Positions 5,183 to 33,259 of a DNA stretch of 64,000 nucleotides are shown in pieces (within the stretch, counting starts at the first letter, position 1; each line of letters starts with the position of its first letter). The notes below the pieces were generated by a model that saw nothing but the letters and a program-made list of their open reading frames with translations, made no database searches and was not told the DNA's origin. The DNA is from a virus (taxonomy: Duplodnaviria; Caudoviricetes). The translations under genes were made by a program, and so were the position numbers. Location of the stretch: positions 128,001-192,000 of the IMG/VR virus record IMGVR_UViG_3300025012_000029; one strand, written 5' to 3'.

Positions 5183-5401
5183 TTATTCTGTCTCTACTTC
5201 AAGCATTGGAGGATTCAAAACTAAAAGTTTTCCATCCAAAGATTGTTCCATCTCTAATCCCAAAAGTAATTTTGTAATATCGCATTCTTCAGCAGGACGA
5301 TCAGAAGCAACGGACATAAGTCCTCTTTGAACACACATCATAATTGAACCAACCGCTTGTGGTGTAAATTGTAATTTTTTATTTTCCCATTTTTTCGTCA
5401 T
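5183..5401 (-). CDS. Hypothetical protein
   Basis: 72 aa ORF in operon. Confidence 0.6.
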   Translation of the reverse strand: MTKKWENKKLQFTPQAVGSIMMCVQRGLMSVASDRPAEECDITKLLLGLEMEQSLDGKLLVLNPPMLEVETE

Positions 5402-5726
5402 TTAAATCTCCAAAATATTCCTTATCGTTCATAGCTTTATCATCAATCCAATGATCATAAAATGGCTTCCCGAGCTTCACTTCATGATACTTCGCTCCCC
5501 AGCTATCAAGTTGCTTCTTTGTGAAGTCAAAAAATCCTCGATATGCTTTTTCAACAACTTCACAATATCTACTCATACCTCGCGCGGTCCAATAAATTAT
5601 TATATGTCCTTCATCATAGAGTTTATTTATTTTTTCTATTCTGTTTTTGTAAGGAACAGCATTTTCGTAATCACCTTCTGTCCTAGAACAGATTGTTCCA
5701 TCAATGTCTACTATGTAAATTGCCAT
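5379..5726 (-). CDS. HAD-superfamily phosphatase (capsule-biosynthesis type)
   Basis: VDIDGTIC, WTARG, GKP..D..IDDK motifs. Confidence 0.85.
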   Translation of the reverse strand: MAIYIVDIDGTICSRTEGDYENAVPYKNRIEKINKLYDEGHIIIYWTARGMSRYCEVVEKAYRGFFDFTKKQLDSWGAKYHEVKLGKPFYDHWIDDKAMNDKEYFGDLNDEKMGK

Positions 5727-6135
5727 GCTCTAAAATCCTTGTTGTAGAATATCCAGGAATTCTATCAAAGTAAACAATTTCTTTACAATACTCTTCTCCA
5801 ACAATCTTCTTTCCTTCCCAATCAGACCCAACTATTCTAACATCTGGTTGAATAATTTTTAACATCTGAATTAATTCTTCTTCCGAATTAAAGCTTTTAA
5901 TCTGATCTATAAATTTTATTAATGACAAAGCATACATTCTGTCTTCAAGAGTGTTGAATGGTCGATTTATTCCTTTGTCTTTTTTAACTTTTTCATCCGT
6001 GTCAAGAGCTATGATGATTTTTGTCTTAGGATTACACAAAGAAGCAAATTCAATTAATTCAAAATGTCCGCGATGTAAAATATCAAAACAACCTGAAATA
6101 AACACAACAACTTCTTTACAATTTATATTAATCAT
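5701..6135 (-). CDS. Cytidylyl/adenylyltransferase (RfaE domain II/HldC/TagD-like)
   Basis: SGCFDILHRGH (HIGH), KGINRP, GYSTT motifs. Confidence 0.85.
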   Translation of the reverse strand: MININCKEVVVFISGCFDILHRGHFELIEFASLCNPKTKIIIALDTDEKVKKDKGINRPFNTLEDRMYALSLIKFIDQIKSFNSEEELIQMLKIIQPDVRIVGSDWEGKKIVGEEYCKEIVYFDRIPGYSTTRILEHGNLHSRH

Positions 6136-6883
6136 CTAATTCTTCTTTATTTACAACTGATACGCCCCGATGTTGAGCAGCGTATGTTGCGCAATTATTG
6201 GCAAATTTTATTGCTTCCTCAATATTTTTTGTTTCAAGATATTTTACAACCAAACCACTTAAGAAGCTATCGCCGCAGCCAGCAACGTCTCTGGTTGTAA
6301 TTTTTGGAACTGGAAAAGTCATTCCTTTAAACATTGCTCCATCTGGACCAAGAGTTATAATAGTCTTGTTTATAATATCTTTGCTAAGATTACCTTTCGC
6401 GCGCTTAAACTCGTTCTCATTTACTTTTATAAAAGATAAATTTCTAACCCAAGCGCTCAAAGGTTTTTTTGTATCAATAAAAGTTAGTTTGTGAGAAGCA
6501 GCAATATATTTTATCTCCGATTCTGTTAAAAATCCCTTATTATAATCTGAAATAACAATCGCTTCATATTTAGAAAAATCTATTGAACGTAAATCAGAAC
6601 GACCATAGCTTTTATCATTTTCATCTATTCGAACAAACATATGATTGCTCTTATGTTCGACATAACGAGTTTTTGTAATTTCACGCCAATTTGTATTAGT
6701 ATACAGGTGAGCATCGGCGCCCAAAGCAAGCAGATTGTTTAGAACGTTTGAAGCCATGCCAGAATTTTCATTACGAGAAACTGGAACCAATATTGGTACT
6801 GGGCTTTCTGGACTTAAACGTGTACAGTCGCACCCAATAAAAACATCTAAATTTGATTCACCTATAACTAATATTTTAGACAT
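6128..6883 (-). CDS. PfkB-family sugar kinase, HldA/RfaE domain I-like
   Basis: RLSPESPVP, SDYNKG, DVAGCGDSF motifs; start at MSKILVIGE. Confidence 0.85.
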   Translation of the reverse strand: MSKILVIGESNLDVFIGCDCTRLSPESPVPILVPVSRNENSGMASNVLNNLLALGADAHLYTNTNWREITKTRYVEHKSNHMFVRIDENDKSYGRSDLRSIDFSKYEAIVISDYNKGFLTESEIKYIAASHKLTFIDTKKPLSAWVRNLSFIKVNENEFKRAKGNLSKDIINKTIITLGPDGAMFKGMTFPVPKITTRDVAGCGDSFLSGLVVKYLETKNIEEAIKFANNCATYAAQHRGVSVVNKEELDD

Positions 6884-6884
6884 A

Positions 6885-8087
6885 TTAAATAATACAATAA
6901 TGTGAAGTTTTGACAATGTTACAAATAAATTCTATGTCGTCCTTGGACAAAGAAATATAATTTGGCAAAAATAATCCACAAGAATGAATCCGATCTGATA
7001 TTGGATGAGAATATTCCCCATACAAATTTTTCCAAAAAACAGATTTCCCCATATTTCCGGCCGAATATATTCTTGTTTCAATTCCATGGAGTTTTAAATT
7101 TCTTACAATAATTTTTCTGTGTTCTTCCGAACTAGCAAGAACAGCAAATGATATAGAAGCGACATTATTTTGTTCCACTTCTTGAACTTGAAACATAGAA
7201 CTTCCTTCAAATTGTTTTTTATAAAAAATATGATTTTCGTGTCTTTTCTTTCCTATGCTGTCCAATTTCGAAATTTGTCTTAAACCAACAAATGCCATTA
7301 AATCGGTAGGACGAAGATTCATGCCTGGAACAATGAAAGAAAACTGTTCATAAATCTTCGAAATATTATATTTTTCCACCATTTCTTTTTTTGAATCATC
7401 ATCTAAATCTCTTATAAATCCATGAGAACGTAACATCAATAGGTGATTATAAATTTCTTTATCATCAGTAAAAACAACTCCACCCTCCGGAGGAACTGTC
7501 GAAACTTGATGCCCAAAAAATAAACTCCATGTAGATATATCACCTACTGCACCTGATTTTGTGCCATCGACATAATGTGATGTTACTGCCGCACACCCAT
7601 CCTCAATCAAATAAAAACCATATTTATTTTTAAGTTGAAGTAATCGATTTTTATCACATAAAACCCCGAGCGGCTGAACAAACAATACTACCGCAGGATT
7701 TTCTCTTTCACATATAATTTCTAATTCATCCAAATCCATCCCAAAGTTATTTTTATCCGCTCCAACCATTATGGGTTTATCAAATCCAAAATTTATAAAT
7801 GGAGCAATTGAAGTTGCCCACGCAACAGATGGAACGACACATTTATTGTTTTTTAATTTTCCAATTATTTTCAAAGCGTATATTGCTAATAAATTTGCAG
7901 ATGAACCACTATTACAAAGAACAGCATATTTTCTTCCAACCCATTCAGCAATCTTCTTTTCAAATTCCTTTGTCAACTCACCCATTGTAAGTTTTGGTGT
8001 TGGATTTTGTAGCATCCATTCACACAATGCCTCAATATCTGATCGATCAAACGTATCTTTAGCAAGTGGAAATTTAATATCTATCAT
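6885..8087 (-). CDS. PLP/PMP-dependent 3-dehydratase, ColD/RfbH-like (DegT family)
   Basis: NSGSSANLL, EDGC; SLFFGHQVST..EGG has His where aminotransferases have the Schiff-base Lys. Confidence 0.8.
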   Translation of the reverse strand: MIDIKFPLAKDTFDRSDIEALCEWMLQNPTPKLTMGELTKEFEKKIAEWVGRKYAVLCNSGSSANLLAIYALKIIGKLKNNKCVVPSVAWATSIAPFINFGFDKPIMVGADKNNFGMDLDELEIICERENPAVVLFVQPLGVLCDKNRLLQLKNKYGFYLIEDGCAAVTSHYVDGTKSGAVGDISTWSLFFGHQVSTVPPEGGVVFTDDKEIYNHLLMLRSHGFIRDLDDDSKKEMVEKYNISKIYEQFSFIVPGMNLRPTDLMAFVGLRQISKLDSIGKKRHENHIFYKKQFEGSSMFQVQEVEQNNVASISFAVLASSEEHRKIIVRNLKLHGIETRIYSAGNMGKSVFWKNLYGEYSHPISDRIHSCGLFLPNYISLSKDDIEFICNIVKTSHYCII

Positions 8088-8088
8088 T

Positions 8089-9069
8089 CTATTTCCTTTC
8101 GTTTTTCACCAATTCTTCATCAGCATCGTACATTATTTTAACAAGCTGTTTAAATTTCGTTTTCGATTCGAATTTGAGAACTGCTTTGGCTTTCGAACAA
8201 TCACCTAGTAACATTGGAACTTCTTGCGCTCTATAATAGATTGGATCTATACGAACACATTTTTCATAATTACCCAAACCGGCATATTCAAATGTTTCTT
8301 TTAAAAATTCTTCAACAGAATGCATTTCTTCTGAACACAGTACGTAATCGCCTGGATGTTTTTGTTGAAGAATTTTCCATATTCCTTCACAAATTTCAGG
8401 AGCATAACTCCAATCTCTAAATGATTTTAGATTACCTAAAACTAATTCTTTTTGTATTCCAGCTTTTATTCTTGCCGCACCTAATGTTATTTTTCTAGTA
8501 ACGAAGTTTTCTCCGCGTCGACTAGACTCGGTGTTAAAAACTATTCCACAACTCGTGTGCAGATTATAAGCATTACGATAATTTACAACTAGATTGTGCG
8601 CTGCTACTTTTGAGCAAGCATACGGACTAGCAGGCATAAATCTAGACAATTCATTAAATGGAACATCAGGATTAAATCCAAACTGCTCACTAGAAGAAGC
8701 TTGATATAACTTTGTTTCTGGACTCAACCTATGAATACATTCAAGTATCCTAAGAGTCCCTATAGCAACTGTATTAAATGCTTCTTCGGGCATGTCAAAA
8801 GAAACTCTAACATGGCTCATACATCCCAAATTATAGAATTCATCTATTTTATATTTTGTAAAAATATTTACAATTGAAATTGGATCGTTAAAATCAAAAT
8901 ACTCCAATTTCAAATTTGGACTTAATAGAATATGATTTATTCTGGTTGTAGAATTGATTGTAGAAGTTCTTCTTTTTAATCCAACAACATAATATCCCTT
9001 ATCTAATAAGAGTTCTGCTAGATAACTTCCAATCTGCCCAGTAATACCGCTAATTGCAGCAATTTTCAT
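8089..9069 (-). CDS. gmd: GDP-mannose 4,6-dehydratase
   Basis: GITGQIGSYL, YQASSSEQFG, SPYACSK, RRGENFVTRKIT, GNLKSFRDW. Confidence 0.95.
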   Translation of the reverse strand: MKIAAISGITGQIGSYLAELLLDKGYYVVGLKRRTSTINSTTRINHILLSPNLKLEYFDFNDPISIVNIFTKYKIDEFYNLGCMSHVRVSFDMPEEAFNTVAIGTLRILECIHRLSPETKLYQASSSEQFGFNPDVPFNELSRFMPASPYACSKVAAHNLVVNYRNAYNLHTSCGIVFNTESSRRGENFVTRKITLGAARIKAGIQKELVLGNLKSFRDWSYAPEICEGIWKILQQKHPGDYVLCSEEMHSVEEFLKETFEYAGLGNYEKCVRIDPIYYRAQEVPMLLGDCSKAKAVLKFESKTKFKQLVKIMYDADEELVKNERK

Positions 9070-10034
9070 TTCACACCCCTACAGTTTGGATAATTCGTCG
9101 TAAACCATTTCACACTTTCTTTCAATGCTACATCAATGCCTGTGTATTTAAAATTGGGAAACAGTTTATCAAAATATTGCGACTCTGTTTTTCTGCGCAT
9201 TTGTCCATTTGGTTTATCTTTGTTCCAAACAATATCGGGATAACTCGTACCTAGTTGTGAATAAACACTCAAAAAAGACAAATCAATCTTTTCGACAATT
9301 TCTTTAATAGAAAATTCTTGACCAGGAACAATCAATCTTTGAGGCATTAGTTCATTCTTTTTCAACAACTCAACACAAACTTTTGCTAAATCTTGAGCAT
9401 AAATAAATTCTCTTTTTGGACTGCCATCGCCCCAACATTCAATATTGGTTTCTGTCGCAAGAGCATTATAAAACTTATGGATGAGAGAAGGAACAACATG
9501 TCCGTCTTCTAAATCATAATTGTCTTTAATCCCAAAAATGTTAGTAGGAATAATTGAGCAATAGTTTACATCGTATTGATCTCGATATGCTCCAATCTGC
9601 ACATCAACCATGCGCTTTGCCATAGCATAGCTCCAGTGAGCAGGAAATGGAGGACCATCGTGCATATTGTTTTCTCTTAAAACTTCTGTATTAGAAGGAA
9701 AAACACATACAGACGAAAAGGCAATTAATTTTTCAATTTTATGTAAGTGTGCTTGTTTGATGATGTTTGTATTCATCAAAATATTATCATTAAATTGCTG
9801 TACTGGGCTATTTAGATTCCTTCCGATCCCTCCAACTCTAGCAGCGCAATGAATTATGTATTCAGGCTTATACAGTCTAAAAAGTCTTTCTACTTCTGAC
9901 TCCTTTGTCAAATCGGCATTCTTGCGTCCAACAAATATGAAATCTAATTCAGGATGGTCAAAGGAAATAGTTTTAATGGCATTACCTACAAGACCGTCCC
10001 CCCCCGTAACAAGCGCGCGACATGGTTTATCCAT
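9066..10034 (-). CDS. GDP-L-fucose synthase/ColC-like epimerase-reductase
   Basis: GGDGLVG, AARVGGIG, SSVC, YAMAKR, PTNIFG, HVVPSLI, WGDGSPKREF. Confidence 0.9.
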   Translation of the reverse strand: MDKPCRALVTGGDGLVGNAIKTISFDHPELDFIFVGRKNADLTKESEVERLFRLYKPEYIIHCAARVGGIGRNLNSPVQQFNDNILMNTNIIKQAHLHKIEKLIAFSSVCVFPSNTEVLRENNMHDGPPFPAHWSYAMAKRMVDVQIGAYRDQYDVNYCSIIPTNIFGIKDNYDLEDGHVVPSLIHKFYNALATETNIECWGDGSPKREFIYAQDLAKVCVELLKKNELMPQRLIVPGQEFSIKEIVEKIDLSFLSVYSQLGTSYPDIVWNKDKPNGQMRRKTESQYFDKLFPNFKYTGIDVALKESVKWFTTNYPNCRGVK

Positions 10035-10205
10035 TTATATATCCCCTATAGAAATTTGCCATTTTTTGTAACAAAACAATTGAAATTTCTTCAAATCATT
10101 TAAAATAACTTCGTCGTAATCAATTTTATCTTTTAAATAAACAAGAAAATATTCTAACTCTTTTTCAATACCACATTTAGAGCACGCTTTTATCATATTA
10201 GTCAT
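10035..10205 (-). pseudogene. 56-aa remnant of an HNH-type endonuclease N-terminus
   Basis: MTNMIKACSKCGIEKELEYF matches the start of ORF 19346-20155 (MKKCSKCGLEKELSEF); no catalytic domain. Confidence 0.5.
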
Positions 10206-10218
10206 TATAACACGCTAG

Positions 10219-10977
10219 CTATCGCCCAAAACGCATATTCCATTTGCTTTCAGCATCTGTCCAATTATAATAATCGATTTTTATTCTCTGTGTTTGATCT
10301 TTGTCCCATATTTCTTCAAAAAGTTTTTTATCATTTTCAAAATATGCTCTTTGTATAGGTTTAGCGTCCGTTGTTACCCAAGACCAGTAAAAATTAGCAC
10401 ACGATTGATGCGATAGAATTATTTTACCACCATTATTCTGAATTCTAAACGAAAGATCGTGTGTATTCATATTTATGTGGAGAAACCGGCAATCTAAACC
10501 ACCCAATTCTCTAAAATAATTTGTATTATACATTCCTAGTGGAGCTATTTTATAGTCATCTGGGATACCAGCTAATTTCTGCATATCACCATGATGTTTC
10601 CCTCTCCAATAATCTAAAGGAAACTCTCCATTGCCTTCTCCTTCAAAATAACGTAATGTTATTCCATCTTTTTCTGTTGCTTGTCCGCTTTCAAATAATT
10701 GAATACATTGAGCTAAAGATCGAGGAGTTATAAATGTGCAGTCGTCCGATAACCACATTAAAAGTTTTCCCTCCGCTAGACAACTTCCCATTTGCACGCA
10801 TCTAGATGGAGATCCAAAATCTCTTATTACTTTAACTCCATCAATTGGAACATCATATGGACTGACAACAATTATCTCGTGAGAATATGGCTCAATTGCT
10901 CGGTCGAGCATGAATTGAATTTTCAATAAATTTTGGACTCGAATAGAAGGTATAATCACGGAAATATCAAATTTCAT
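10219..10977 (-). CDS. GT-A/GT2-like glycosyltransferase (paralog 1)
   Basis: ISVIIPSIR, LSDD, FRELGGLD; similar to 11288 and 16841 ORFs. Confidence 0.8.
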   Translation of the reverse strand: MKFDISVIIPSIRVQNLLKIQFMLDRAIEPYSHEIIVVSPYDVPIDGVKVIRDFGSPSRCVQMGSCLAEGKLLMWLSDDCTFITPRSLAQCIQLFESGQATEKDGITLRYFEGEGNGEFPLDYWRGKHHGDMQKLAGIPDDYKIAPLGMYNTNYFRELGGLDCRFLHINMNTHDLSFRIQNNGGKIILSHQSCANFYWSWVTTDAKPIQRAYFENDKKLFEEIWDKDQTQRIKIDYYNWTDAESKWNMRFGR

Positions 10978-11330
10978 TTAATCTCCAAATTCTGGATAAC
11001 ATATCCTAAAAGTTGTTTACGAGAAATTCCTTTTTCAAAAGCCAATTGTTCAACTCTATTTTTCTTATCAATTCTCTCTTGAAATTTTTCTGCAGTGACA
11101 TTACCAAAAGCAATGCCTTCAGGTTCATCTCTATAATCCAATATGCGACCTAGTTCGTATGAACCATCATCATTTATCGCTACTTCTAAAGCAAGTCCCA
11201 ATGGATGAAAGAAGAGACGATTGGCTTCTTGAAGGAAACCAAATTCAAGAAATTCTTTAATATCCATATTTTTAATCTTATTAGAATTCATCCAAACCTC
11301 CTTTTCCATACTGCTGATGAATCTTTCCAA
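10974..11330 (-). CDS. Hypothetical protein
   Basis: 118 aa ORF, coupled. Confidence 0.65.
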   Translation of the reverse strand: MERFISSMEKEVWMNSNKIKNMDIKEFLEFGFLQEANRLFFHPLGLALEVAINDDGSYELGRILDYRDEPEGIAFGNVTAEKFQERIDKKNRVEQLAFEKGISRKQLLGYVIQNLEIK

Positions 11331-14400: not shown

Positions 14401-14416
14401 ATTTTGTTTCCTTTTC

Positions 14417-26658: not shown

Positions 26659-26661
26659 ATT

Positions 26662-27156
26662 TTATTCCTCACTATTCCAGCTTGGTTCCCAATCAGAATA
26701 TTCTGATGCCAAGCAATCAACTTTATGATCAATTCTTCCTTTGACTTGATATTCAATATTATTTTTAGCTCTATTTCTTACTCCATTCAAAGAATGTGAC
26801 AATAAAAGCTTACTTCCGTCTTTATTGCCTTTTCTTGCTTCACTTTCATTATACCAGATATGATTGTTATAGTGCGCAAGGATAATGATATTACGAATGA
26901 TGTCAGCATTGAGCGCTACTGGAATTTCATCTAAAAATAGATCAATATCATACATTATGTCCTTTATTTCTTGCGCGTACGCTGCTTTATGTTCAGGAAT
27001 TCTAACTTCTTTCAACTGATCTATCGACATCCTATCTATCAAGTCTGATAGCGATGGCAAATATCTCCTTTTCTTCTCTGTCATTTTTTCTCCTCGATTC
27101 CCATTACAACTACAACACACATATCCCATATGAATAGAACAATAATTGTGTAACAT
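26662..27156 (-). CDS. Hypothetical protein
   Basis: 164 aa ORF; LSDLIDRMSI segment; true start may be MTEKK. Confidence 0.65.
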   Translation of the reverse strand: MLHNYCSIHMGYVCCSCNGNRGEKMTEKKRRYLPSLSDLIDRMSIDQLKEVRIPEHKAAYAQEIKDIMYDIDLFLDEIPVALNADIIRNIIILAHYNNHIWYNESEARKGNKDGSKLLLSHSLNGVRNRAKNNIEYQVKGRIDHKVDCLASEYSDWEPSWNSEE

Positions 27157-27158
27157 TT

Positions 27159-28829
27159 TTATTCAACACTGTCAAAGTATTCTTTAAAGGTATTATAATT
27201 TGACTCTCCTATAACATCTTTAAATTCATGGAAAACATCACGTTCTTCGCGCCTTCGACGAAGCATTTTGTCTGGATCGGAACTTGTGCTTAATCCGTCT
27301 GGATTATAATAATAAAGTCCCAATATTTTATTAACCTTCTTAAAAAGAGAACCAGCTCTAACAGCTCGCAACCATAACTCCCAATCTCCAGCGTGTTTGA
27401 GTTTTTCATCCCATAGTCCCGCTTTATCGTGAATAGATTTACGATATAGAGGTAGGGGTCCGGGAAGACATTTGATCATATTTTCTCTGGAAAAATCCAT
27501 TCGAGAGTGTTCATACAATCTTCCTTTTGAAGAATTTTGTTCAACTGTTTCATTAGGTTTTGTCGTTTGAAGACAATCCCCATATACCAAATCGATTTCT
27601 GGATTCAACATTAAGTGTTTTGCTAGTGTTTCTAAATGATCGTTCGCCATCCTATCATCAGCCAACACACATGCTATAAATTCCCCGGACGCAAGTTTCG
27701 TTGCTTCATTAAATGCTTCCATTGGAGTTATTTGGGTGTTTTTTCTAATATATTTAATATTGTCTGTATGCACTTGTATATATTTCGAAATTATTGAGAC
27801 TTCATCATCTGGAGAATTGGCATCGATAATGATTAATTCAGAATCGTCTGATATTGTTTGTGCTACAAACGAATCCATAAAACCTTTAATATGTTCCTTT
27901 GCTTTATAGATTGTCGTAATAACTGAAACTTTGGGAAGTTTTACTGAATTAAATTTTTCCACTTCTTTATCTTTGATTACTTTCTCAAACAAATCAATTG
28001 TTTTTTCTTTTCTTCCGGCAATATATTCTAATAACTCTTCGCCCTTTAATTTGAAAAAATCTTCTGATGCGCATCCTAAAGCTTTGTTTGTTATTAATTT
28101 ACAACCTAGAATTCTAGCTTCAATCGCGACCCTACAAAATGTTTCAATCCATGTAGGAAAAAACACCAACGTTTCTGTTTTGGCAAGTTCATCAAAAAAT
28201 CTATCTTGATCACAAAATGGAATTAATTCATAATTTATTTTATTCTTTTTACAATATTGTATTGCTTCGGGCATGCCTTTATTTTTATTATTGGATTGGA
28301 TAATACCAACTTTTCTATTCTTCTTTTTTCCAATATTGTTGCGAAGGACTTCAACTGCTTCATCAGACCATATATTACATCCAATATTGACAATATTTTT
28401 GAGAAGAAGATTTTTCTCCATTATTTCAGCATGCATCTTGCTTTGACAAAAAACTGCTTTCGCTGATTTAAAAAATTGTTTATTCTGTATTTGATCTTCA
28501 GGAACAACAAGATTTGGAAATAATGCTGGGTTATTTGATTTGAATGCCTTCCAATCATTTTCAACTATCAAATAATTTATTTTTTCATTAATCAGTGTTT
28601 GTTTACTATCTTCTGGTAATAGCATAAAATTTGATATTATCCAAAAACAATCTTTATTGTCTTTTAGCAAGTTAGAAGTACATTCAACACTTTTAAGTTT
28701 TTCTAATTCGAATCCACGTTTCTGCAGAGACTTTATTTGTTCTTCTGCGCACAACTCGGCACCGCCACAGATTTCATTAGCAAAATAGTCAGCAACATAA
28801 ACAACTTTTTTAGTATTAATCATACGCAA
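27159..28829 (-). CDS. Two-domain glycosyltransferase (GT-B-like + GT2)
   Basis: ETFCRVAIEA (GT4 E-x7-E type); C-terminal VSVITTIY, IDANS, LADD, GDWELWLR. Confidence 0.85.
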   Translation of the reverse strand: MRMINTKKVVYVADYFANEICGGAELCAEEQIKSLQKRGFELEKLKSVECTSNLLKDNKDCFWIISNFMLLPEDSKQTLINEKINYLIVENDWKAFKSNNPALFPNLVVPEDQIQNKQFFKSAKAVFCQSKMHAEIMEKNLLLKNIVNIGCNIWSDEAVEVLRNNIGKKKNRKVGIIQSNNKNKGMPEAIQYCKKNKINYELIPFCDQDRFFDELAKTETLVFFPTWIETFCRVAIEARILGCKLITNKALGCASEDFFKLKGEELLEYIAGRKEKTIDLFEKVIKDKEVEKFNSVKLPKVSVITTIYKAKEHIKGFMDSFVAQTISDDSELIIIDANSPDDEVSIISKYIQVHTDNIKYIRKNTQITPMEAFNEATKLASGEFIACVLADDRMANDHLETLAKHLMLNPEIDLVYGDCLQTTKPNETVEQNSSKGRLYEHSRMDFSRENMIKCLPGPLPLYRKSIHDKAGLWDEKLKHAGDWELWLRAVRAGSLFKKVNKILGLYYYNPDGLSTSSDPDKMLRRRREERDVFHEFKDVIGESNYNTFKEYFDSVE

Positions 28830-31326
28830 TAACTTCTTTCAATAAGGGATTAACTTCTTTTTCTTCTTTCAGAAAATCCGCAATATCTACAATTGGATAA
28901 TATTCATCTACACAATCGGCGAAATGTGTCAACATCTTATCGGAATCAAATTTGTCTAACACATATTCTTGAAGTTTGTTTGCTCGCGATTTACAAGAAC
29001 CATAATTTTTGTAAACTTCCCTCATTTGTTGTTTAGCATCAATTTCTCTAGGAAAGCACCATTGTGCATCAGGAATAATTATTCCATCCCAAACTGCTTC
29101 TGGTTGAACATTTTTAATATCGTACGCTACGTTAGAAATCATACATGTATTTTTGATTTTATTCTTTTTCTTATCTTTTATTGGCATATAAATAAAATCA
29201 TTTTGTCCACTCCATGCGGGGGCAACTATCGGCAATCCATTATATGCTGATTCAAACATTGGAAGACAGTTGTGCACCATAAAATTTTCAGTACAATAAG
29301 TTTCGTCTTCTTCAACAGAAAGGTTGAATACTTTACCAGCGTGCTGAAATTTAGTAATATTTTTTATTCTCAGCAAAAAACAATCTTCTTTTTCTTTAGT
29401 TCTTCCAGATTGTTTTTCATTAAACGAATCTGCCAACTGCAGTGTGTCGTATATTACAGTATTAGAAGTATGTTTATTTAACATGGTTACAAATTTATTA
29501 ATACTTTCTTTTTTTCCAATAACTAACGAATGAATTTCACTCTTGTAATTCCATTTTTCTTTAATAATTCCTTCTCGGGTGCACATTTTATAGGAACATA
29601 ATATTCCTTGTTCTAATAATAATATTCTAATTTGTCTCAATAATGTTTTATTGACAAGTTGTACCTCTATAGATGGATTCTTGTAATTTTTAGTATTAAT
29701 ATATCCATCTCCTTCAAATAAAGCAGTAATCATTCCCTCTTTAAATTCATTAGGAAACGAGAAAACGCAATCACTAATAACTTTATTTTTTGATTTATTT
29801 CCCAATAAAGATTTGAAAAATAAAGCCACAATTTTATTGTGAAATACAATAACAGAACATTTTTTATTTTTTCTTTTTTCTATCCTAAAATGTTCTATCC
29901 CGAATATATCTTTCATGCAATTGATAATTTCTTTTCCAAAAGAATCAATTTCTTTATCATGAAGAGAAAAAGCAATAATTCTATCATCAGATACACATCC
30001 TTCGGCTAAAAACCATCCACACAATCTACCAAATTTTTTATCAATATTGATATTATTTTTTATTTTTAGGCCAAGTTTATTTGAATGCATATAAAAAATA
30101 TCTTCATCGTTTAGTACTAAATTTTTTTCATTTTTTACGTGTTCAAATATATCAATATTGTTAATGATATTTTCTTTTTTTGACATTTTTGGCAAAACCA
30201 AATAGTCATTTTGTTTTAATTCATCGCTTCTTTTCCACAAGAATTCTTTATTTTTATTATCATAAATGTAAACATTGTGATTCGGCGTTAAAACAATTGG
30301 TTCCATAGGTACTGCACAATATGGAACAATTTTAATCATCTCGCCAGAATATTCACGAGACATAGGAGTTATAACTTTTCGATATCGATTTCTATGAGTC
30401 AATACTAAATCTCCAGATTTAATATCGATCAATTTCTTAAGTCCTTTGTCTGTAATAATTGGAGTATAGTCCAATCCGCAGAAACCTTCTCCGTGCGTTA
30501 AACTAATGAAAGCTTTAATTTTTGGATGTCTATAAAGAAAAGTCATTTCTTCCTCTCTTAAATCTCCATGTAAAAGATGTATAGCACATTTTCGTTCTTT
30601 TCCATTAAATTGAGATAAAACATCATTAACTCTATTTTGAGTCATTTCTCTATCCATTAATGATTGATTAACGGAATTGACTTTCAATATTAATCCAACT
30701 TCTTTATTCATAAACTCTTCAACGAACCATTTAATTGTATTTTCAACATTCTTTCGTGGTCCCCATTGAGCTACAGTTAGAAAATTAAAATCATACTTAA
30801 AATCAACATTAATTGGTTTTGGTTCTACAATTCTAACCGGATAAGGAACAACTTCCATTGGCATCTCAAGTTTGGCAACAAATTGTCTTCCTGTAACATT
30901 ATCTGTCGCTGGAAACTGCGCATTGGTAAAACCAAATTTAGAATGATTAGATGTTAATAGAATTTTGTTTACATTGAAACATCCCTGAAACCATTGAGGT
31001 GAAATTTTAGTTGTTTCAATTCCAGCAGTATATCCAATATTAATTGGAGCCATTTTTTTCCACTCATTTGGGATACAAACTTGTAATGATATATCAAACT
31101 GTCCACCTTGTTGTTGATAAACAAGAGTTTTTTGAAGAATTTGATCAATCCAGCGGCGCTCTTCTGTATCTTCCCATGTCCAACTTGTTCTACCCCAAGG
31201 GGTATTAATGAGATATATGTCAAATCGTTCTGGAAACTTTCGAAGAGCGGAAAGAGCAAAACGACTCTGAACACCATAACCGCTTTGGCTCAAAAAAGGT
31301 CCCCTCATTATGATTTTTTTAGTCAT
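28816..31326 (-). CDS. GT4-like glycosyltransferase containing an intein
   Basis: SGYG, QWGPRKN; the motif EGF|CLPMFES is restored after intein removal. Confidence 0.9.
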   Translation of the reverse strand: MTKKIIMRGPFLSQSGYGVQSRFALSALRKFPERFDIYLINTPWGRTSWTWEDTEERRWIDQILQKTLVYQQQGGQFDISLQVCIPNEWKKMAPINIGYTAGIETTKISPQWFQGCFNVNKILLTSNHSKFGFTNAQFPATDNVTGRQFVAKLEMPMEVVPYPVRIVEPKPINVDFKYDFNFLTVAQWGPRKNVENTIKWFVEEFMNKEVGLILKVNSVNQSLMDREMTQNRVNDVLSQFNGKERKCAIHLLHGDLREEEMTFLYRHPKIKAFISLTHGEGFCGLDYTPIITDKGLKKLIDIKSGDLVLTHRNRYRKVITPMSREYSGEMIKIVPYCAVPMEPIVLTPNHNVYIYDNKNKEFLWKRSDELKQNDYLVLPKMSKKENIINNIDIFEHVKNEKNLVLNDEDIFYMHSNKLGLKIKNNINIDKKFGRLCGWFLAEGCVSDDRIIAFSLHDKEIDSFGKEIINCMKDIFGIEHFRIEKRKNKKCSVIVFHNKIVALFFKSLLGNKSKNKVISDCVFSFPNEFKEGMITALFEGDGYINTKNYKNPSIEVQLVNKTLLRQIRILLLEQGILCSYKMCTREGIIKEKWNYKSEIHSLVIGKKESINKFVTMLNKHTSNTVIYDTLQLADSFNEKQSGRTKEKEDCFLLRIKNITKFQHAGKVFNLSVEEDETYCTENFMVHNCLPMFESAYNGLPIVAPAWSGQNDFIYMPIKDKKKNKIKNTCMISNVAYDIKNVQPEAVWDGIIIPDAQWCFPREIDAKQQMREVYKNYGSCKSRANKLQEYVLDKFDSDKMLTHFADCVDEYYPIVDIADFLKEEKEVNPLLKEVIAYD
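29269..30480 (-). mobile_element. Class-1 intein (404 aa) with LAGLIDADG endonuclease
   Basis: Cys1 (CGLDYTPIIT), block B TPNH, FLAEG and LFEGDG motifs, ends VHN followed by +1 Cys. Confidence 0.92.
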
Positions 31327-31334
31327 TGTGCTTC

Positions 31335-31655
31335 CTATAATATATTTTTAATTTTTATTTCATTAGTTTTTGGATCGCATACACGCGAAGATAAAGATAC
31401 ATTATCTATATGCCTAGGATATAATAATCTTTTTTTTAGTGCGACTTCTTTTAGTTTTTGTCCACGAAGTGAATTTTTAAAAAAACTTTTTATACTGTTA
31501 TTAAAACATTCTTTATTATCAAAACAAATATTATGTGGTGAAAACTTAATTGACTTTTTTTCCACCCGGCGTCGCAAAGTATATAATAATCTCTCAATTA
31601 GAAAAAACATATACTCCATCGTTTTCAATAAATTATAAATAATATTTTTCACCAT
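31335..31655 (-). CDS. Hypothetical protein
   Basis: 106 aa, preceded by AGGGG SD-like motif. Confidence 0.5.
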   Translation of the reverse strand: MVKNIIYNLLKTMEYMFFLIERLLYTLRRRVEKKSIKFSPHNICFDNKECFNNSIKSFFKNSLRGQKLKEVALKKRLLYPRHIDNVSLSSRVCDPKTNEIKIKNIL

Positions 31656-31674
31656 ATTTACCCCTTACACTTTT

Positions 31675-33259
31675 TTATAAAGTTCTCAATTCCCACGCTC
31701 TGTAACATTTTCTATTTTCCCAACTACCATGCTTTTCGTGAACATGAGTTAAAACTTCATCCCAACGCTTGTTGAATGATTCAAAATTATAATTTTTGAT
31801 AACATGTTCTCTTCCCTTTTTACCCATCAATATGCGTTCTTCTTTTGTCATATTATAAAACATAACCATTGCCTTGAGAAAATCCGGTTTTGAAATTCTG
31901 TCCTCAAAAATATATGGCACTGTTTGTGATCCAATTACAACGCTTGACGCCGGAATTATTCCAATTCCATGTTCACATATTTTTATTTTATCAGATATCT
32001 CATTATTTCTTTTTTCGACAAATTCACAAGACATTTGAATATTTGTCATATCCATTACTTGTTCTTGTAAACCACCTGTCATACTGACTATAATTGGAGT
32101 TTCACAAGCAAGGCTTTCAAAAACAGAAAGTCCAAAACCCTCTGCATCCGAAATTGATAGAGTAGCATCCGCCATATTATAAATTCCTGCCATATTTTCT
32201 GATGTTAATTTATCTTTAGATATAAAAACACTTTGCTCTTTATCTAAACCAAGTTCTTTAATTATGGCATATAAATCTTGTCCATTTTCATCTTTTGGCT
32301 CAGTGTGCATAAGCAGCATTGCTTTATCGTGCCCTATAATGTCTAAAAATTCTTTAAACCACCAAATAAGAGTTCCACTTTGCTTTCTTCTAGCATTTCT
32401 GCTATTCCAGAAAAACAACATTTTATCTGTAGCATTGGGAAAATTCTCTCTTCTTAAAGAAATGATTTTGTCATCTGGTAATTTAGTAAAAACGGATGTA
32501 TTCACAGAATGCGGAAAATATGTTTCTTCTACGTTTGGAGAAACAGTCTTTACAATGTCTGATGTAAGTTTTGAAATGGTAGCAATGAAATCTGTTGAAT
32601 CATATAATACTTTATTGAAGCTTGGATATGGGTAATTATCCCAAACGTGGTAATAAACCATCGGTACCAAGGAACGTATTTCGTGTTCAATTTCCCAAAG
32701 CCAAATATAGAATCTTGGATCGGTCATAAACCAAAGAATATCAGGTCTATGATTTCTAACGACTGAACGAACAATTTCTTGATTGGCATACCCATCAACT
32801 GGATAAATGATCCAATCATCTCCAAATTCATGGAATTTAACAATGCGTCGATCACTGTGAACTAATGCGCCACCTAAAGTAATAATCTGATATTTTCCTG
32901 TTTTAAGGAGTGCTTCACACATGTATTTAGTTTGCGATCCAACCCCAGACGGGCTTACGATTATTGGACTATATCACCATGTTACAAAAACATGTCGGGC
33001 GCTGTCGGATCATTACCATGTTGCTATAGCAATTTAGGCTAACCGTAGTCTCTGAACCTTCTCCACCGTTTCCAGACAGGAGCTTGGCTGCTGATTGTTC
33101 AATTACATTATTTTTTTTCTTTCGCGCATGTCGTTTCCAACTACGCTGTAGAACAATGTTTTTAAGAATTTTCCAGCAATTCACCCGATTTTACATCCGC
33201 TAAACCTTGTCAGTCGACGGATGATCGGAAATTGTTAGTATTTTAATCTTTTTTGTCAC
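31675..33259 (-). CDS. GT4 glycosyltransferase, spliced (exon 1 33217-33259, exon 2 31675-32957; 441 aa)
   Basis: Joined exons read MTKKIKILTISDHP-L-SPSGVGSQTKY...; RNARRK and EGFGLSVFES GT4 motifs; GTG start. Confidence 0.88.
32958..33216 (-). ncRNA. Group I intron (259 nt, ORF-less, IA-like)
   Basis: P AAUUGCUGGAAA, Q AAUCAGCAG, R UCAGAGACUA, S GAUAUAGUCC; P1 CAUCCGU/GCGGAUG with U-G at the splice site; P10 UAAGCC/GGUUUA; P3 CGGGUG/CGCCCG; terminal G. Confidence 0.92.

Follow-up and report, generated by a model that had tools for sequence, protein, structure and literature searches.

Gene content of the island

A block of 28 kb and about 30 genes occupies positions 5379-33259 of the window (the whole 64,000-nucleotide stretch that was analysed; Table 1) on the minus strand of a 201-kb groundwater phage recorded in IMG/VR. 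The phage is large and distantly T4-like; its contig carries a major capsid protein, a large terminase and tail fibres, and CheckV rates the genome as 100% complete, bearing out the assignment to a phage. Downstream the island is contiguous with a late sigma factor gene, as the initial annotation had proposed, which holds the same place in nine viral loci (50-54% identity). The PD-(D/E)XK nuclease on the upstream side keeps its place ahead of the GT4 gene in phages immuto and Mel-JY01 as well as in 13 viral loci.

Everything in the inventory of the initial annotation was found where it had been placed, all on the minus strand. The island encodes seven soluble glycosyltransferases (GTs) with eight GT domains, Gmd, an Fcl-like SDR, a ColD-type 3-dehydratase, three more SDRs, a two-domain UGD-like dehydrogenase, an RfaE-type kinase, a nucleotidyltransferase, a HAD phosphatase, IscA and one classical methyltransferase, where several had been listed. 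Parts beyond that inventory are a B12-binding radical SAM enzyme (rSAM), a TPP E1 α/β pair, an L-2-hydroxyglutarate (L2HG) oxidase-like flavoenzyme and the HAD phosphatase, as well as an intein, a group I intron and an HNH gene. The island thus provides for several rare activated sugars and seven enzymes that attach them, with no genes for export. This supports the description of a phage-borne build-and-transfer system for rare sugars, but 'complete-looking' was too strong, because precursors must come from the host: GmhA, ManB/ManC and any export or lipid-carrier enzyme are not encoded. No GT9 was found. There is no polytopic membrane ORF in the island and one in the whole genome, outside the window (a 985-aa protein, genome positions 49175-52132).

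Table 1. Features of the island and its flanks (window positions).
Feature	Position	Strand	Evidence and remarks
gp55-like late sigma factor	3915-4631	-	phrog_234, E 2e-6; conserved downstream flank
Small HAD phosphatase, DIDGT motif	5379-5726	-	phrog_1238 1e-31; phrog_415; candidate GmhB analogue
RfaE-domain-II-type nucleotidyltransferase	5701-6135	-	TIGR02199 89 bits (cut-off 181)
PfkB sugar-phosphate kinase, RfaE-domain-I type	6128-6916	-	TIGR02198 118 bits (cut-off 345)
ColD-type PLP/PMP-dependent sugar 3-dehydratase	6885-8087	-	PDB ColD 2e-47
Gmd (GDP-mannose 4,6-dehydratase)	8089-9069	-	PF16363 7e-105; TIGR01472 349 bits; PDB MUR1 1e-90
GDP-L-fucose-synthase-like epimerase/reductase	9066-10034	-	NF047922 190 bits, below cut-off
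GT-A paralogue a	10219-10977	-	Paralogue alignment
GT-A paralogue b	11288-12073	-	Weak PF00535 match; paralogue alignment
SDR, UDP-hexose 4-epimerase or UDP-glucuronate decarboxylase-like	12054-13064	-	PDB 4zrm 1e-26
UGD-like nucleotide-sugar dehydrogenase	13582-14400	-	PF03721 + PF00984; N-terminal and central domains only
SDR N-terminus fragment	14417-14599		Flanks Fcl-like SDR of phage-specific insert
Fcl-like SDR (epimerase/reductase)	14589-15542	-	NF047922 123 bits, below cut-off
UGD N-terminus copy (fragment)	15559-15690		Flanks Fcl-like SDR of phage-specific insert
SAM-dependent methyltransferase	16296-16844	-	PF13489, E 2e-5; in 9 viral loci
GT-A paralogue c	16841-17638	-	AF2 pLDDT 95; GT-A fold; conserved DD motif
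CgeB/YkvP-type GT-B	17631-18590	-	PF13524, E 1e-18
Minimal E1-β-like pyrimidine-binding subunit, 179 aa	18814-19353	-	NF006667 37 bits; weak PF02779
HNH-type endonuclease gene between E1 genes	19346-20155	-	Weak PF13395 match
Minimal TPP-binding E1-α-like subunit, 217 aa	20158-20811	-	PF00676; TIGR03182 75 bits, below cut-off
B12-binding radical SAM enzyme	20812-22350	-	PF02310 + PF04055; CxxxCxxC at residue 236
IscA/ErpA-type Fe-S carrier	23481-23879	-	TIGR00049 85 bits, above cut-off
Predicted lipoprotein, metzincin-like QEIGHTLGLSH motif	23881-24612	-	LSSC lipobox
L2HG oxidase/dehydrogenase-like FAD enzyme	24648-25727	-	NF008726 207 bits (cut-off 299)
Cj1427-like SDR	25714-26658	-	PDB 6vo6, E 3e-68, residues 2-305
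Four-helix-bundle protein, virus-only	26662-27156	-	Likely true start Met25, 27084
Two-domain GT, 556 aa	27159-28829	-	GT-B-like N-terminal half, GT2 C-terminal half
Second lineage-core GT-B (GT4-like), 836 aa, intein-bearing	28816-31326	-
Intein with LAGLIDADG endonuclease, residues 283-687	29266-30480	-	PF14890, PF14528, PF13403
GT4 exon 2	31675-32957	-	PF00534 + PF20706; 441 aa once spliced
Group I intron within GT4 gene	32958-33216	-	Rfam RF00028
GT4 exon 1, 14 codons, GTG start	33217-33259	-	First lineage-core GT4 glycosyltransferase
PD-(D/E)XK nuclease	34140-34931	-	PF12705, 1e-20; conserved upstream flank

Glycosyltransferases

All seven GTs proposed by the initial annotation (three GT2-like paralogues, a CgeB-like enzyme, a GT-B and GT2 fusion and two GT4 enzymes) stand. 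The first GT4 gene, initially listed as an ORF at 31675-32922, is split by a group I intron (RF00028, 62.2 bits against a gathering score of 50, E 3e-15, span 32954-33238). Joining 33217 to 32957 yields MTKKIKILTISDHPLSPSGVG..., in agreement with the N-termini of 13 intron-less homologues. The enzyme is 50-57% identical to homologues in 13 viral loci, 33% to gp181 of Flavobacterium phage immuto, 30-36% (two tblastn pieces) to a Mel-JY01 protein and 25% to RM378 p013. In the second GT, the intein interrupts a GEGF|C..LPxxE motif; its first residue is Cys, its last two are HN with Cys as the next residue, and homologues lack it. The extein (residues 1-282 and 688-836) aligns as one continuous stretch with homologues that have no intein, from 14 viral loci, and likewise with immuto gp180, RM378 p014 and the homologue in Mel-JY01. 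These two homing elements occupy exactly the two lineage-core GTs.

The two-domain GT, present in 18 viral loci, matches PF00535 over residues 302-469, and the nearest Atlas clusters of its N-terminal 295 aa are Glycos_transf_1 (score 0.96). The structural neighbours of the CgeB-type GT in the Atlas include the spore CgeB/YkvP families and a fusion family with Maf (flagellin glycosylation). Paralogues a, b and c share 28-37% mutual identity; Foldseek places the model of paralogue c near the fucosyltransferase WrtF and ppGalNAc-transferases (E about 1e-10).

Nucleotide-sugar and tailoring enzymes

Gmd and the 3-dehydratase are as first described, with ColD the best PDB match of the latter. Its His193 aligns with ColD His188. 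The 40 homologues aligned from related viral and SAR11 loci all have His in this column, and across the aligned DegT proteins the residue is His in 41 of 41 and never Lys. The four intact SDRs expected besides Gmd are those starting at 9066, 12054, 14589 and 25714. The first matches human GDP-fucose synthase in the PDB (8e-66) and the second matches UXS entries at about 4e-19. The third sits in a phage-specific insert with gene fragments, and its matches in relatives are only 21-29% identical. The proposed UGD is present as a dehydrogenase that retains the catalytic Cys in a GxCFxKD motif but lacks the UDP-binding C-terminal domain; this short form is common to relatives (in the one relative measured, the gene spans about 250 codons and directly adjoins the next).

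The heptose-type kinase and nucleotidyltransferase are both present and RfaE-type. The heptose assignment is nevertheless weak, because both lie far below the NCBIfam equivalog cut-offs and GmhA is not encoded. The closest PDB entry to the fourth SDR is 6vo6, which we take to be Cj1427, the NDP-heptose C4-dehydrogenase of C. jejuni. The SDR gene overlaps by 14 nt with that of the flavoenzyme (PDB matches 3dme, 9e-62, and 8w75, 6e-32), which adjoins the SDR in three other viral loci. The neighbouring lipoprotein has no homologue in the related loci examined.

By analogy, the B12-rSAM is probably a C-methyltransferase or rearranging enzyme, and IscA, identified as initially annotated, is probably its helper. 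The best NCBIfam match of the rSAM is HpnJ (140 bits, below cut-off), Pelagibacterales proteins are 60-64% identical, and stretches that encode a relative number at least 104 in IMG/VR and at least 118 in bacteria; 50,697 GenBank phage records gave zero matches. E1 α has a TPP-type motif, GE..(27)..DN, and occurs in 28 viral and 43 bacterial loci. For E1 β, identity is 60-65% to proteins of viral loci and reaches 60% in bacteria. Relatives lack the HNH gene, and there the α and β genes abut. The four-helix protein, whose gene is embedded in this module, was found in 35 viral loci (53-61% identity) versus one of 80 bacterial loci; the AF2 model has four helices, the Atlas clusters closest to it are 98-100% viral, and no PDB match was obtained.

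Distribution in phages and bacteria

Rather than being singular, the island belongs to a whole phage lineage, in which the locus is conserved and mosaic. IMG/VR phage contigs share 15-18 of its genes in unchanged order (38-65% identity) and between the same flanks, and cassette content is mosaic among these relatives. The two leading GTs extend to cultured phages of Flavobacterium, Microcystis and Rhodothermus. Nuclease, GT4 and second GT are kept together in the Flavobacterium and Microcystis phages; in Rhodothermus phage RM378 the GT pair is conserved among replication genes, beside ribonucleotide reductase, a helicase and an Erf-like protein.

The tailoring core (rSAM, 3-dehydratase, C4-dehydrogenase and E1 pair) is a real, conserved and unstudied module, found also in glycan clusters of SAR11, Omnitrophota and Planctomycetes. 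Of 80 bacterial loci with the rSAM, 64 also hold a ColD-like protein, 63 the Cj1427-like SDR, 43 E1 α and 35 E1 β; among viral or SAR11 loci, that SDR lies beside the rSAM in 61 of 85. In SAR11 the module is accompanied by a GHMP kinase and a fusion of NTP-transferase and HAD, which represent the alternative known route of heptose activation. Homologues of the island GTs were found in none of the 80 bacterial loci.

The acceptor of the glycan

The initial annotation left the choice between virion decoration and host-surface remodelling. The evidence leans towards a cytoplasmic, phage-intrinsic acceptor, without deciding the matter, because a polytopic membrane protein lies within 10 kb in 0 of 54 viral versus 22 of 65 bacterial loci carrying the same tailoring module (Fisher p = 3e-7), because phages of Bacteroidota and Cyanobacteria share the two leading GTs as conserved genes, and because the homing elements sit in those GTs. 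The fixed flanks in relatives together with the lack of GT9, the spore-coat and flagellin (Maf) families near the CgeB-type GT, and the virus-only four-helix protein within the module lend further support. The best explanation, to which we give somewhat less than an even chance, is a lineage-conserved, wholly cytoplasmic glycan factory whose acceptor is most likely the virion proteins of the phage itself; we thus favour virion glycosylation, tentatively. A search of the structural proteins for acceptors found Ser/Thr runs or an obvious tail in none, and no T4-type late promoter was found. Both results count against the virion reading, as do four further points. A candidate ACTATTTA promoter motif found ahead of capsid-region genes does not occur in the island, a difference that is not statistically significant. 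The island directly adjoins the late-sigma gene, whose own expression has to precede that of late genes. Acceptors of the host, undecaprenyl-linked or lipid A-core, are likewise within reach of soluble GTs, and the host would then export them. Finally, in RM378 the GT pair lies in a replication context.

We consider the main rival unlikely though still a serious competitor: the phage would make new nucleotide sugars, its soluble GTs would add them to lipid-linked intermediates of the host (undecaprenyl-PP-glycans or lipid A-core) on the inner side of the membrane, and a host flippase, polymerase, ligase or ABC transporter would export the altered O-antigen or capsule. Superinfection by competing phages would then be blocked, or progeny would not be trapped on cell debris. 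Comparable pelagimyophage islands beside tail-fibre genes, with rfaE, UGD, GTs and radical-SAM cassettes, have been read as host O-chain modification (PMC7029224). The tailoring module here is 40-64% identical to bacterial surface-glycan clusters, often with polytopic membrane proteins; the island adjoins host-recognition genes, varies in cassettes among relatives as O-antigen loci do, and includes a lipoprotein gene in the phage studied. However, an initiating phosphoglycosyl transferase, flippase, polymerase, ligase, ABC transporter and Gtr-type membrane protein are absent from the genome and the 54 viral loci, and a foreign glycan would need acceptance by the host exporter. Conservation of the two leading GTs across phages of Flavobacterium, Rhodothermus and Microcystis, hosts with very different surface glycans, and the lack of GT homologues in the bacterial loci also argue against remodelling.

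A quite different product has a small probability: a glycoconjugate (soluble or secreted), a glycosylated small molecule or an intracellular polysaccharide that aids infection by other means, for example as a decoy for lectin-like receptors of host or competitors, or as a sink or signal made from ADP-heptose-like metabolites; the targets might also be non-structural phage or host proteins. The empty-handed acceptor search, the varied contexts of the module in bacteria of many phyla, and the four-helix protein and several small ORFs without assigned role would fit such a product, but seven GTs and three sugar branches suggest a complex oligosaccharide rather than a metabolite, and the locus is fixed beside virion genes in many relatives.

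Glycosylation of modified phage-DNA bases, which evades restriction in T-even phages, is very improbable, as the initial annotation had argued from the window, because the whole CheckV-complete genome has no ThyA-family dCMP/dUMP hydroxymethylase (ThyX only), and it has neither a C5-DNA methyltransferase nor PurZ, so that no known acceptor base could be made. In its favour, the GT-B enzymes adjoin a nuclease (and replication genes in RM378), a domain resembling the dATP/dGTP diphosphohydrolase MazZ is present 7 kb upstream, and multi-sugar phage DNA glycans have been reported for metagenomic viruses (Pyle et al. 2024, as cited in PMC12619734). Searches of the genome for TET/JBP and T4 β-glucosyltransferase gave no match, with the controls of both searches silent as well.

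A model for glycan synthesis

By homology, the gene set provides three sugar branches. Gmd can convert host GDP-mannose to GDP-4-keto-6-deoxymannose, from which an Fcl-like SDR can make GDP-L-fucose, or the ColD-type 3-dehydratase with another Fcl-like reductase a colitose-type 3,6-dideoxy sugar. The two-domain UGD-like dehydrogenase and the GalE/UXS-like SDR form a UDP-sugar branch.

The third branch is previously undescribed. Its proposed substrate is a sugar phosphate, probably that of a heptose and derived from the host, which kinase, HAD phosphatase and nucleotidyltransferase would phosphorylate, dephosphorylate and nucleotidylate. The Cj1427-like SDR would oxidize C4, if it acts like Cj1427 with conversion of 2-oxoglutarate to L2HG, and the overlapping flavoenzyme would regenerate 2-oxoglutarate; the ColD-type enzyme would remove the 3-OH. 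Cj1427 itself uses 2-oxoglutarate in this way and has been coupled in vitro with a C3-dehydratase to give a 3-deoxy-4-keto-heptose (PMC10680097). By analogy, the E1 α/β pair may then add a two-carbon branch onto the 4-keto intermediate, a modification with precedent in yersiniose and avilamycin-type sugars. The rSAM, served by IscA, may methylate or rearrange the sugar, an SDR would carry out the final reduction, and O-methylation by the methyltransferase is conceivable. The seven soluble GTs would assemble the sugars, the two lineage-core GT-B enzymes starting the glycan and the variable downstream cassette diversifying it.

The source contig is a complete phage genome

The window comes from a single contig of 201,144 bp (34% G+C), one strand of which holds 224 of the 235 ORFs. 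Besides 27 tRNA genes and GroEL, the contig encodes a gp23-like major capsid protein (phrog_138), a large terminase (phrog_2), Ig-domain decoration/fibre proteins and tail fibres, and CheckV puts completeness at 100%; the phage origin that the initial annotation had left for confirmation is thereby established. Megablast of 50 kb of the window found no DNA-level match in GenBank phages. At the protein level, the capsid is 38% identical to that of an uncultured 484-kb phage, 36% to that of Microcystis phage Mel-JY01 and 33% to that of Rhodothermus phage RM378, while the terminase is 42% and 41% identical to those of Flavobacterium phage vB_FspM_immuto and Mel-JY01 respectively. Judged by protein comparison, the phage is distantly T4-like. 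The public runs that hold its DNA are groundwater metagenomes, with no RNA run listed among them.

When the contig ends (1–100 and 201045–201144) are compared, bases 15–100 reappear in reverse complement as the last ~86 bases, and the last 100 bases recur ~2 kb upstream of the end; these ends are either an assembly artefact or unusual termini. The genome also houses a TnpB gene and an intein-bearing PIN-PhoH fusion (see table).

Gene content of the island

All genes named in the initial annotation were located, co-oriented, between 5379 and 33259, a ~28 kb block of sugar-synthesis and glycosyltransferase (GT) genes. Its seven GT genes are borne out and comprise eight GT domains, as judged by Pfam, paralogue alignment and AF2/Foldseek. 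Three of them, the GT-A paralogues, are faint in Pfam but mutually alignable, with a predicted GT-A fold (pLDDT 95) and Foldseek E-values of about 1e-10 to GT-A transferases. The several methyltransferases it had listed shrink to a single classical enzyme. The 164-aa protein has no PDB fold match below E 1.

Features of the island and of the surrounding phage genome. Island genes come first, in order of transcription; positions are those of the window unless marked as genome.
Feature	Position	Strand	Remarks
GT4 gene	exon 1 33259-33217, exon 2 32957-31675	-	first 14 codons split off by group I intron
Second core GT			836-aa GT-B enzyme, intein at residues 283-687
556-aa GT			GT-B-like N-terminal half, GT2 C-terminal half
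164-aa protein			virus-only, four-helix; after 556-aa GT, before SDR
SDR	25714-26658	-	followed by FAD oxidoreductase
FAD oxidoreductase	24648-25727	-	14-nt overlap with SDR end
Lipoprotein	23881-24612	-	before rSAM
IscA, small ORFs			with the lipoprotein, between FAD oxidoreductase and rSAM
B12-binding radical SAM enzyme (rSAM)	20812-22350	-	CxxxCxxC present
E1-alpha-like TPP subunit			after rSAM
HNH-like endonuclease ORF	19346-20155	-	between E1 subunits
E1-beta-like subunit			
CgeB-type GT			
GT-A paralogue c (GT2c)			after CgeB-type GT
Methyltransferase			after GT-A paralogue c
Fcl-like SDR	14589-15542	-	amid small ORFs and gene fragments
UGD-like dehydrogenase	13582-14400	-	followed by GalE/UXS-like SDR
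GalE/UXS-like SDR			
GT-A paralogues b and a			in that order
GDP-fucose-synthase-like SDR			
Gmd			
ColD-like enzyme			
RfaE-type kinase, nucleotidyltransferase, small HAD phosphatase			last island genes
UGD-like fragment	15559-15690	-	43-aa copy of UGD-like N-terminus, ~75% identity over first 28 aa
SDR fragment	14417-14599	-	60-aa SDR N-terminus, Rossmann motif only
Group I intron	32954-33238	-	Rfam RF00028, 62 bits, E 3e-15
Intein	29266-30480	-	LAGLIDADG endonuclease
HNH remnant	10035-10205	-	56 aa
NUMOD3/DUF559 endonuclease gene	33243-34115	-	immediately upstream of GT4 gene
PIN-PhoH fusion protein	36148-38742	-	interrupted by Hint/LAGLIDADG intein
MazZ-like dATP/dGTP diphosphohydrolase N-terminal domain	40040-40483	-	PF18909, 1e-34
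925-aa protein	40483-43260	-	adjoins MazZ-like domain; no assigned function
IS605-type TnpB	49497-50693	-	OrfB_IS605 plus Cas12f-like TNB domain
ACTATTTA sites (examples)	38778, 48087, 50707; genome 64777, 61569, 70746, 99012		

The lipoprotein carries an LSSC lipobox and a metzincin-like QEIGHTLGLSH motif, in which Gln replaces the first zinc-binding His; it has no counterpart in any fetched related locus and may be an exclusion or envelope-acting protein. The two gene fragments both sit in a 14.4–16.3 kb stretch that is missing from relatives.

Homing elements occupy the core glycosyltransferases

The group I intron of the GT4 gene was missed by Rfam at the gathering threshold over 53 kb and scored 62 bits only in a 0.9-kb scan. 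Joining the exons at 33217/32957 brings back MTKKIKILTISDHPLSPSGVG, the N-terminal sequence of 13 homologues that lack the intron. The second, GT4-like GT is interrupted by the intein inside its catalytic GEGF/C..LPxxE motif (slash at the junction); its homologues run contiguous across this site, and the intein is missing in 14 related viral loci. For an intein, a glycosyltransferase gene is an unusual location, and we found no description in the literature of homing elements inside glycosyltransferase genes. Intron and intein occupy exactly the two lineage-core GT genes, which fits the persistence of homing elements in conserved sites. Free-standing endonuclease genes are also scattered through the island: the HNH-like ORF splits E1 alpha from E1 beta, which abut in relatives, and the start of its 56-aa remnant (CSKCGxEKEL) is identical to its own.

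Two probable nucleotide-sugar branches

Gmd matches PF16363 at 7e-105 and, among solved structures, plant MUR1 best (1e-90); its TIGR01472 score of 349 bits is below the 415 cut-off. Of the three Fcl-like SDRs, the one nearest Gmd resembles true GDP-fucose synthase (8e-66 to the human enzyme). By homology, conversion of host GDP-mannose to GDP-L-fucose by this pair is well supported.

Among solved structures, the DegT-family protein is closest to the ColD entries (2e-47); in the alignment, its His193 occupies the position of ColD His188 (2gms; H188N mutant 3b8x), the residue that in ColD replaces the usual PLP lysine. Since ColD is the best match and His193 stands in place of the lysine, assignment as an aminotransferase was rejected. 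The histidine is present at this column in 41 of 41 aligned DegT proteins from viral and SAR11 loci. Together with one of the two further Fcl-like SDRs, the enzyme could add a colitose-type 3,6-dideoxyhexose. Relatives that have no Gmd still keep the ColD-like gene together with those for the kinase, nucleotidyltransferase and HAD protein; for this reason the substrate of the ColD-like enzyme may not be a GDP-hexose.

The UGD assigned by the initial annotation stands as regards its catalytic Cys motif, which is intact, but the protein consists of Rossmann and central domains only; the entire C-terminal nucleotide-sugar-binding domain is missing. The same short form (~250 codons), abutting the next gene, is found in a related phage (locus L081). 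We therefore rejected a pseudogene and regard the protein as a conserved variant. With its GalE/UXS-like neighbour it suggests a second branch leading to a UDP-uronic acid, pentose or epimer.

A proposed third branch built on a widespread tailoring module

The SDR that precedes the FAD oxidoreductase matches PDB 6vo6 over its full length (3e-68). This entry, deposited as a 'putative sugar-nucleotide epimerase/dehydratase', we take to be Cj1427 of Campylobacter jejuni. The best matches of the overlapping flavoenzyme are L-2-hydroxyglutarate (L2HG) oxidase (NF008726, 207 bits) and a Drosophila PDB entry, presumably L2HG dehydrogenase. Cj1427 uses 2-oxoglutarate, from which L2HG is formed, and together with the PLP-dependent C3-dehydratase of serotype HS:5 it yields a 3-deoxy-4-keto-heptose in vitro (PMC10680097). 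We infer a recycling pair, in which the SDR dehydrogenase would use up 2-oxoglutarate and the overlapping oxidase would regenerate it; the ColD-type enzyme would also free 2-oxoglutarate from glutamate. Three other viral loci likewise have the SDR and flavoenzyme genes side by side.

Among 80 bacterial loci retrieved with an rSAM profile, the rSAM gene is accompanied by a ColD-like gene (64/80), a Cj1427-like SDR (63/80), E1 alpha (43/80) and E1 beta (35/80). The bacteria include Pelagibacteraceae, Methylopumilus, many groundwater Omnitrophota, Planctomycetales and Bdellovibrionales. These genes form a widespread, apparently unstudied sugar-tailoring module. We found neither the five-enzyme module nor the proposed 2-oxoglutarate/L-2HG cycle described in the literature.

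In SAR11 (L009–L011, Pelagibacterales) the module adjoins a GHMP kinase, an NTP-transferase/HAD fusion, an acetolactate-synthase-like TPP enzyme and cupins, and the first two have the pattern of a GDP-heptose route, judged by gene family. In the phage it adjoins the RfaE-type kinase, nucleotidyltransferase and HAD set. Mainly because two different heptose-style activation sets accompany the same tailoring core, a heptose is tentatively favoured as the substrate. The best NCBIfam models for kinase and nucleotidyltransferase, rfaE_dom_I and rfaE_dom_II, are matched at 118 and 89 bits, far short of their respective equivalog cut-offs of 345 and 181. The HAD protein (115 aa, DIDGT motif, phrog_1238 at 1e-31) is shorter than GmhB. 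The sedoheptulose-7-P isomerase GmhA (PF13580) is absent from the complete genome, the control being found in 11 of 14 genomes, as is a GT9 heptosyltransferase (PF01075, control positive). No HddA (GHMP kinase) or HddC (NTP_transferase) activation gene is present in the island, nor does any island ORF match the cupin C3/C5 epimerase family PF00908.

The E1 pair is trimmed to two TPP-binding cores of 217 and 179 aa, in which the TPP motif survives in a GE...DN variant. If it acts as YerE and AviB1/AviB2 do, it would add a two-carbon branch to the 4-keto intermediate. We speculate that the B12-rSAM enzyme, furnished with clusters by IscA, would act on the sugar by methylation or rearrangement.

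Conservation of the island within a phage lineage

Relatives of the rSAM enzyme number in the thousands at 60–64% identity, some of them labelled Pelagibacterales. Scanning IMG/VR with the single rSAM sequence returned nothing, whereas a profile built from an alignment of homologues found relatives in at least 104 viral stretches. When all island proteins were compared by tblastn against 80 fetched loci, seven contigs of 56–113 kb (L073–L075, L077–L079 and L081) showed 15–18 island genes in the same order at 38–65% identity. Further contigs keep both ends of the island around a different middle: on the left GT4, the second GT, the GT-B/GT2 fusion, the 164-aa protein, SDR and rSAM, and on the right the ColD-like gene, kinase, nucleotidyltransferase and HAD phosphatase. 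The flanks are also common to relatives, with a 231-aa protein and a PD-(D/E)XK nuclease upstream and a small membrane protein, a gp55-like sigma factor and two more ORFs downstream. Related capsids are encoded on a complete 186-kb contig (60% identity) and a 318-kb contig (44–50%). Common flanks and related capsids identify these relatives as phages, and an origin from mis-binned SAR11 DNA was rejected.

Among 50,697 GenBank phages, tblastn found no match to the rSAM enzyme and, for the Cj1427-like SDR, nothing above 32% identity; GT-A paralogue c likewise had no tblastn match in GenBank phages. GT4 matches only seven GenBank phage records (four immuto, Mel-JY01, the uncultured 484-kb LR756508 and RM378), these being the phages that also rank highest in the capsid and terminase searches. 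The order PD-(D/E)XK nuclease, GT4, second GT is kept in immuto and Mel-JY01, where the head is followed by further GTs, aminotransferases, a methyltransferase and an epimerase; in immuto this makes an 11-kb island (gp181–gp169). RM378 has the GT pair alone, among replication genes. The picture drawn by these comparisons is of a lineage-core GT-B pair followed by a swappable sugar cassette, and gene order and identity mark the island as a locus conserved within a phage lineage. We found no description of the nuclease–GT4–GT head common to cultured phages.

Promoters

The T4-type late promoter motif occurs as TATAAATA in 12 and as NATAAATA in 52 copies in the genome, of which 0 and 2 lie within 60 nt upstream of ORF starts; both forms were therefore rejected as promoters of this phage. 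A de novo k-mer search yielded the 8-mer ACTATTTA, located 10–63 nt upstream of about 13 ORF starts, the capsid operon included, and often preceded by TTTTTGTA at 9–14 nt. We regard it as a candidate promoter of the phage; in appearance it is Bacteroidota-like. The island contains 0 copies against about 2.4 expected, too few for the zero to give anything firm on timing. Scans of 3.5–40.5 kb for sigma-70 promoters and terminators gave counts equal to those in shuffled sequence and were uninformative.

Membrane machinery and the glycan acceptor

The island combines nucleotide-sugar synthesis genes with several GTs, yet none of its ORFs has more than one hydrophobic/TM segment, and a polytopic initiating phosphoglycosyl transferase (WecA/WbaP type) is accordingly absent. 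The sole ORF with four TM segments in the genome (985 aa, genome 49175–52132) lies outside the window. An autonomous surface polysaccharide (Wzx/Wzy- or ABC-dependent) is excluded, as no initiating transferase, flippase, polymerase, ligase or ABC exporter is present. ORFs with at least six TM segments occur within 10 kb of rSAM in none of 54 viral but in 22 of 65 bacterial loci (Fisher p = 3e-7), and the 80 bacterial loci contain no homologue of any of the phage GTs. The phages have thus adopted the sugar-tailoring core without its membrane machinery and combined it with GTs of their own and the virus-only four-helix protein. This consistent lack of membrane partners in the viral versions was not found described in the literature.

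Missing membrane machinery points to an acceptor brought by the phage, most simply virion proteins. Other features argue for the same: conservation of the leading GT pair in Flavobacterium, Rhodothermus and Microcystis phages, the position of the island beside the late sigma factor and tail/baseplate genes, and the structural relatedness of the CgeB-type GT to families that glycosylate spore coats and flagellin. Soluble phage GTs without export genes are also what virion glycosylation systems have. We found no Ser/Thr-rich acceptor tract in the 235 ORFs (no 40-aa window above 47%), such motifs being undefined for this lineage. Tentatively, we favour phage virion proteins as the acceptor, while recognizing that this may well prove wrong.

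The soluble GTs could equally well extend host lipid-linked intermediates that host machinery then exports. Such remodelling of the host envelope is the published reading of analogous pelagimyophage blocks (PMC7029224); here we rate it somewhat less likely than virion decoration. That these genes serve some other product or target altogether we hold to be improbable. Glycosylation of DNA is very unlikely: the complete genome encodes ThyX only, with no ThyA-family hydroxymethylase (PF00303, control positive), no C5-DNA methyltransferase (PF00145) and no PurZ, so this route looks closed. The initial annotation had seen no DNA-base-modifying enzyme in the window, and for ThyA-type hydroxymethylases and C5-DNA methyltransferases that now extends to the whole genome. 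Searches for TET/JBP (PF12851) and T4 beta-glucosyltransferase (PF09198) gave no match, but both controls were also silent. Without PurZ, a Z-base genome is not indicated, despite the MazZ-like domain.

Starting again from virion proteins as acceptor, a wider proposal can be framed, which we think rather unlikely to be right as a whole. Large aquatic phages of one whole lineage, which between them infect Bacteroidota and Cyanobacteria, would coat their virions with a complex oligosaccharide that includes an undescribed C-branched/C-methylated 3-deoxy sugar made by a new route. The two core GT-B enzymes would start the glycan and swappable cassettes would diversify it. One cassette would make the 3-deoxy sugar, probably heptose-derived, through a 2-oxoglutarate-consuming C4-dehydrogenase sustained by a dedicated L2HG oxidase, a 3-dehydratase, a minimal TPP carboligase and the B12-radical-SAM enzyme. 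Because the module would also decorate the surfaces of SAR11, Omnitrophota and Planctomycetes, the phage would wear a sugar found on bacteria.

Implications

To our knowledge, phage-encoded virion glycosylation has been established experimentally only in mycobacteriophages, and the big 'LPS gene' blocks of aquatic myophages have been on record for 20 years with no experimental test of what they do. A conserved two-GT head with fixed flanks, in a lineage that includes three cultured phages, makes the target testable at the bench, and the phage versions consistently come without the membrane machinery of the bacterial ones. The module of C4-dehydrogenase, 3-dehydratase, E1 alpha/beta and B12-rSAM is unstudied, although it occurs in abundant uncultured bacteria, SAR11 included, and on more than 100 viral contigs; the Cj1427-like dehydrogenase and L2HG oxidase offer a proposed, testable cofactor-recycling pair. 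If the virions are glycosylated, this would bear on phage stability, adsorption, grazing and immune recognition, as well as on the presentation of sugars by viral particles in aquatic systems.

Comparison with known systems

The virion O-glycosylation systems of mycobacteriophages Che8, Corndog and Myrna (Freeman et al., 2023), as far as the account in PMC12619734 goes, comprise 2–7 genes and place glycans on capsid and tail-tube C-termini. By description they resemble the island in having cytoplasmic, soluble GTs and a methyltransferase, some with sugar-nucleotide enzymes, and no export. The island differs in its size (~28 kb), its three sugar branches and its radical-SAM and TPP chemistry. 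Mycobacteriophages infect Actinobacteria, whereas relatives of the island phage infect Bacteroidota and Cyanobacteria.

GT/'LPS' blocks beside the tail-fibre genes of aquatic T4-like phages, with rfaE, UDP-glucose dehydrogenase and radical-SAM cassettes, are already known; in pelagimyophages and cyanomyophages they form a variable block of the host-recognition cluster (PMC7029224). Zaragoza-Solas et al. (2020) found GT8 to be the commonest family and read the genes as host O-chain modification, without pathway reconstruction (PMC7029224). The island is likewise a large block beside tail-fibre genes of a T4-like aquatic myophage, but the lineage is another (nearest terminases immuto and Mel-JY01, about 41%) and no GT8 was seen in it. 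Moraphages are large aquatic T4-related phages with Bacteroidota-like genes, chaperones and a sigma factor; four of their core orthogroups are annotated as glycosyltransferases, with function unresolved there, and their neighbours in the capsid tree include a Rhodothermus phage (Perez-Hernandez et al., 2025; PMC12619734). By description they are like the island phage in size, chaperone genes, sigma factor and core GTs, but that paper describes no sugar-synthesis island (PMC12619734).

As to chemistry, the island shares with the capsular heptose modification of C. jejuni a Cj1427-like SDR, a ColD-type 3-dehydratase and Fcl-like reductases beside activation genes. The predicted activation is of the RfaE (ADP-heptose) type, with PfkB and cytidylyltransferase-like genes, where C. 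jejuni uses HddA/HddC (GDP-heptose), and the B12-rSAM enzyme, E1 pair and L2HG-oxidase-like partner are additions missing from the C. jejuni pathway. YerE (yersiniose) and the E1 alpha/beta-like pair AviB1/AviB2 (avilamycin) are TPP enzymes that form two-carbon branched-chain sugars. The island E1 pair likewise lies in a deoxysugar cluster predicted to yield a 3-deoxy-4-keto intermediate, the kind of acceptor used by YerE, and the acetolactate-synthase-like TPP enzyme of the SAR11 module resembles YerE itself; unlike those systems, the island subunits, at 217 and 179 aa, are cut down and have a B12-radical-SAM enzyme as their partner. With the GDP-L-colitose and GDP-L-fucose pathways the island has in common Gmd, a ColD-type enzyme with the catalytic His, and Fcl-like reductases. 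In chlorovirus PBCV-1, Gmd and GMER supply the capsid glycans, which provides a precedent for a virus that makes GDP-6-deoxyhexoses for its own capsid glycoprotein.
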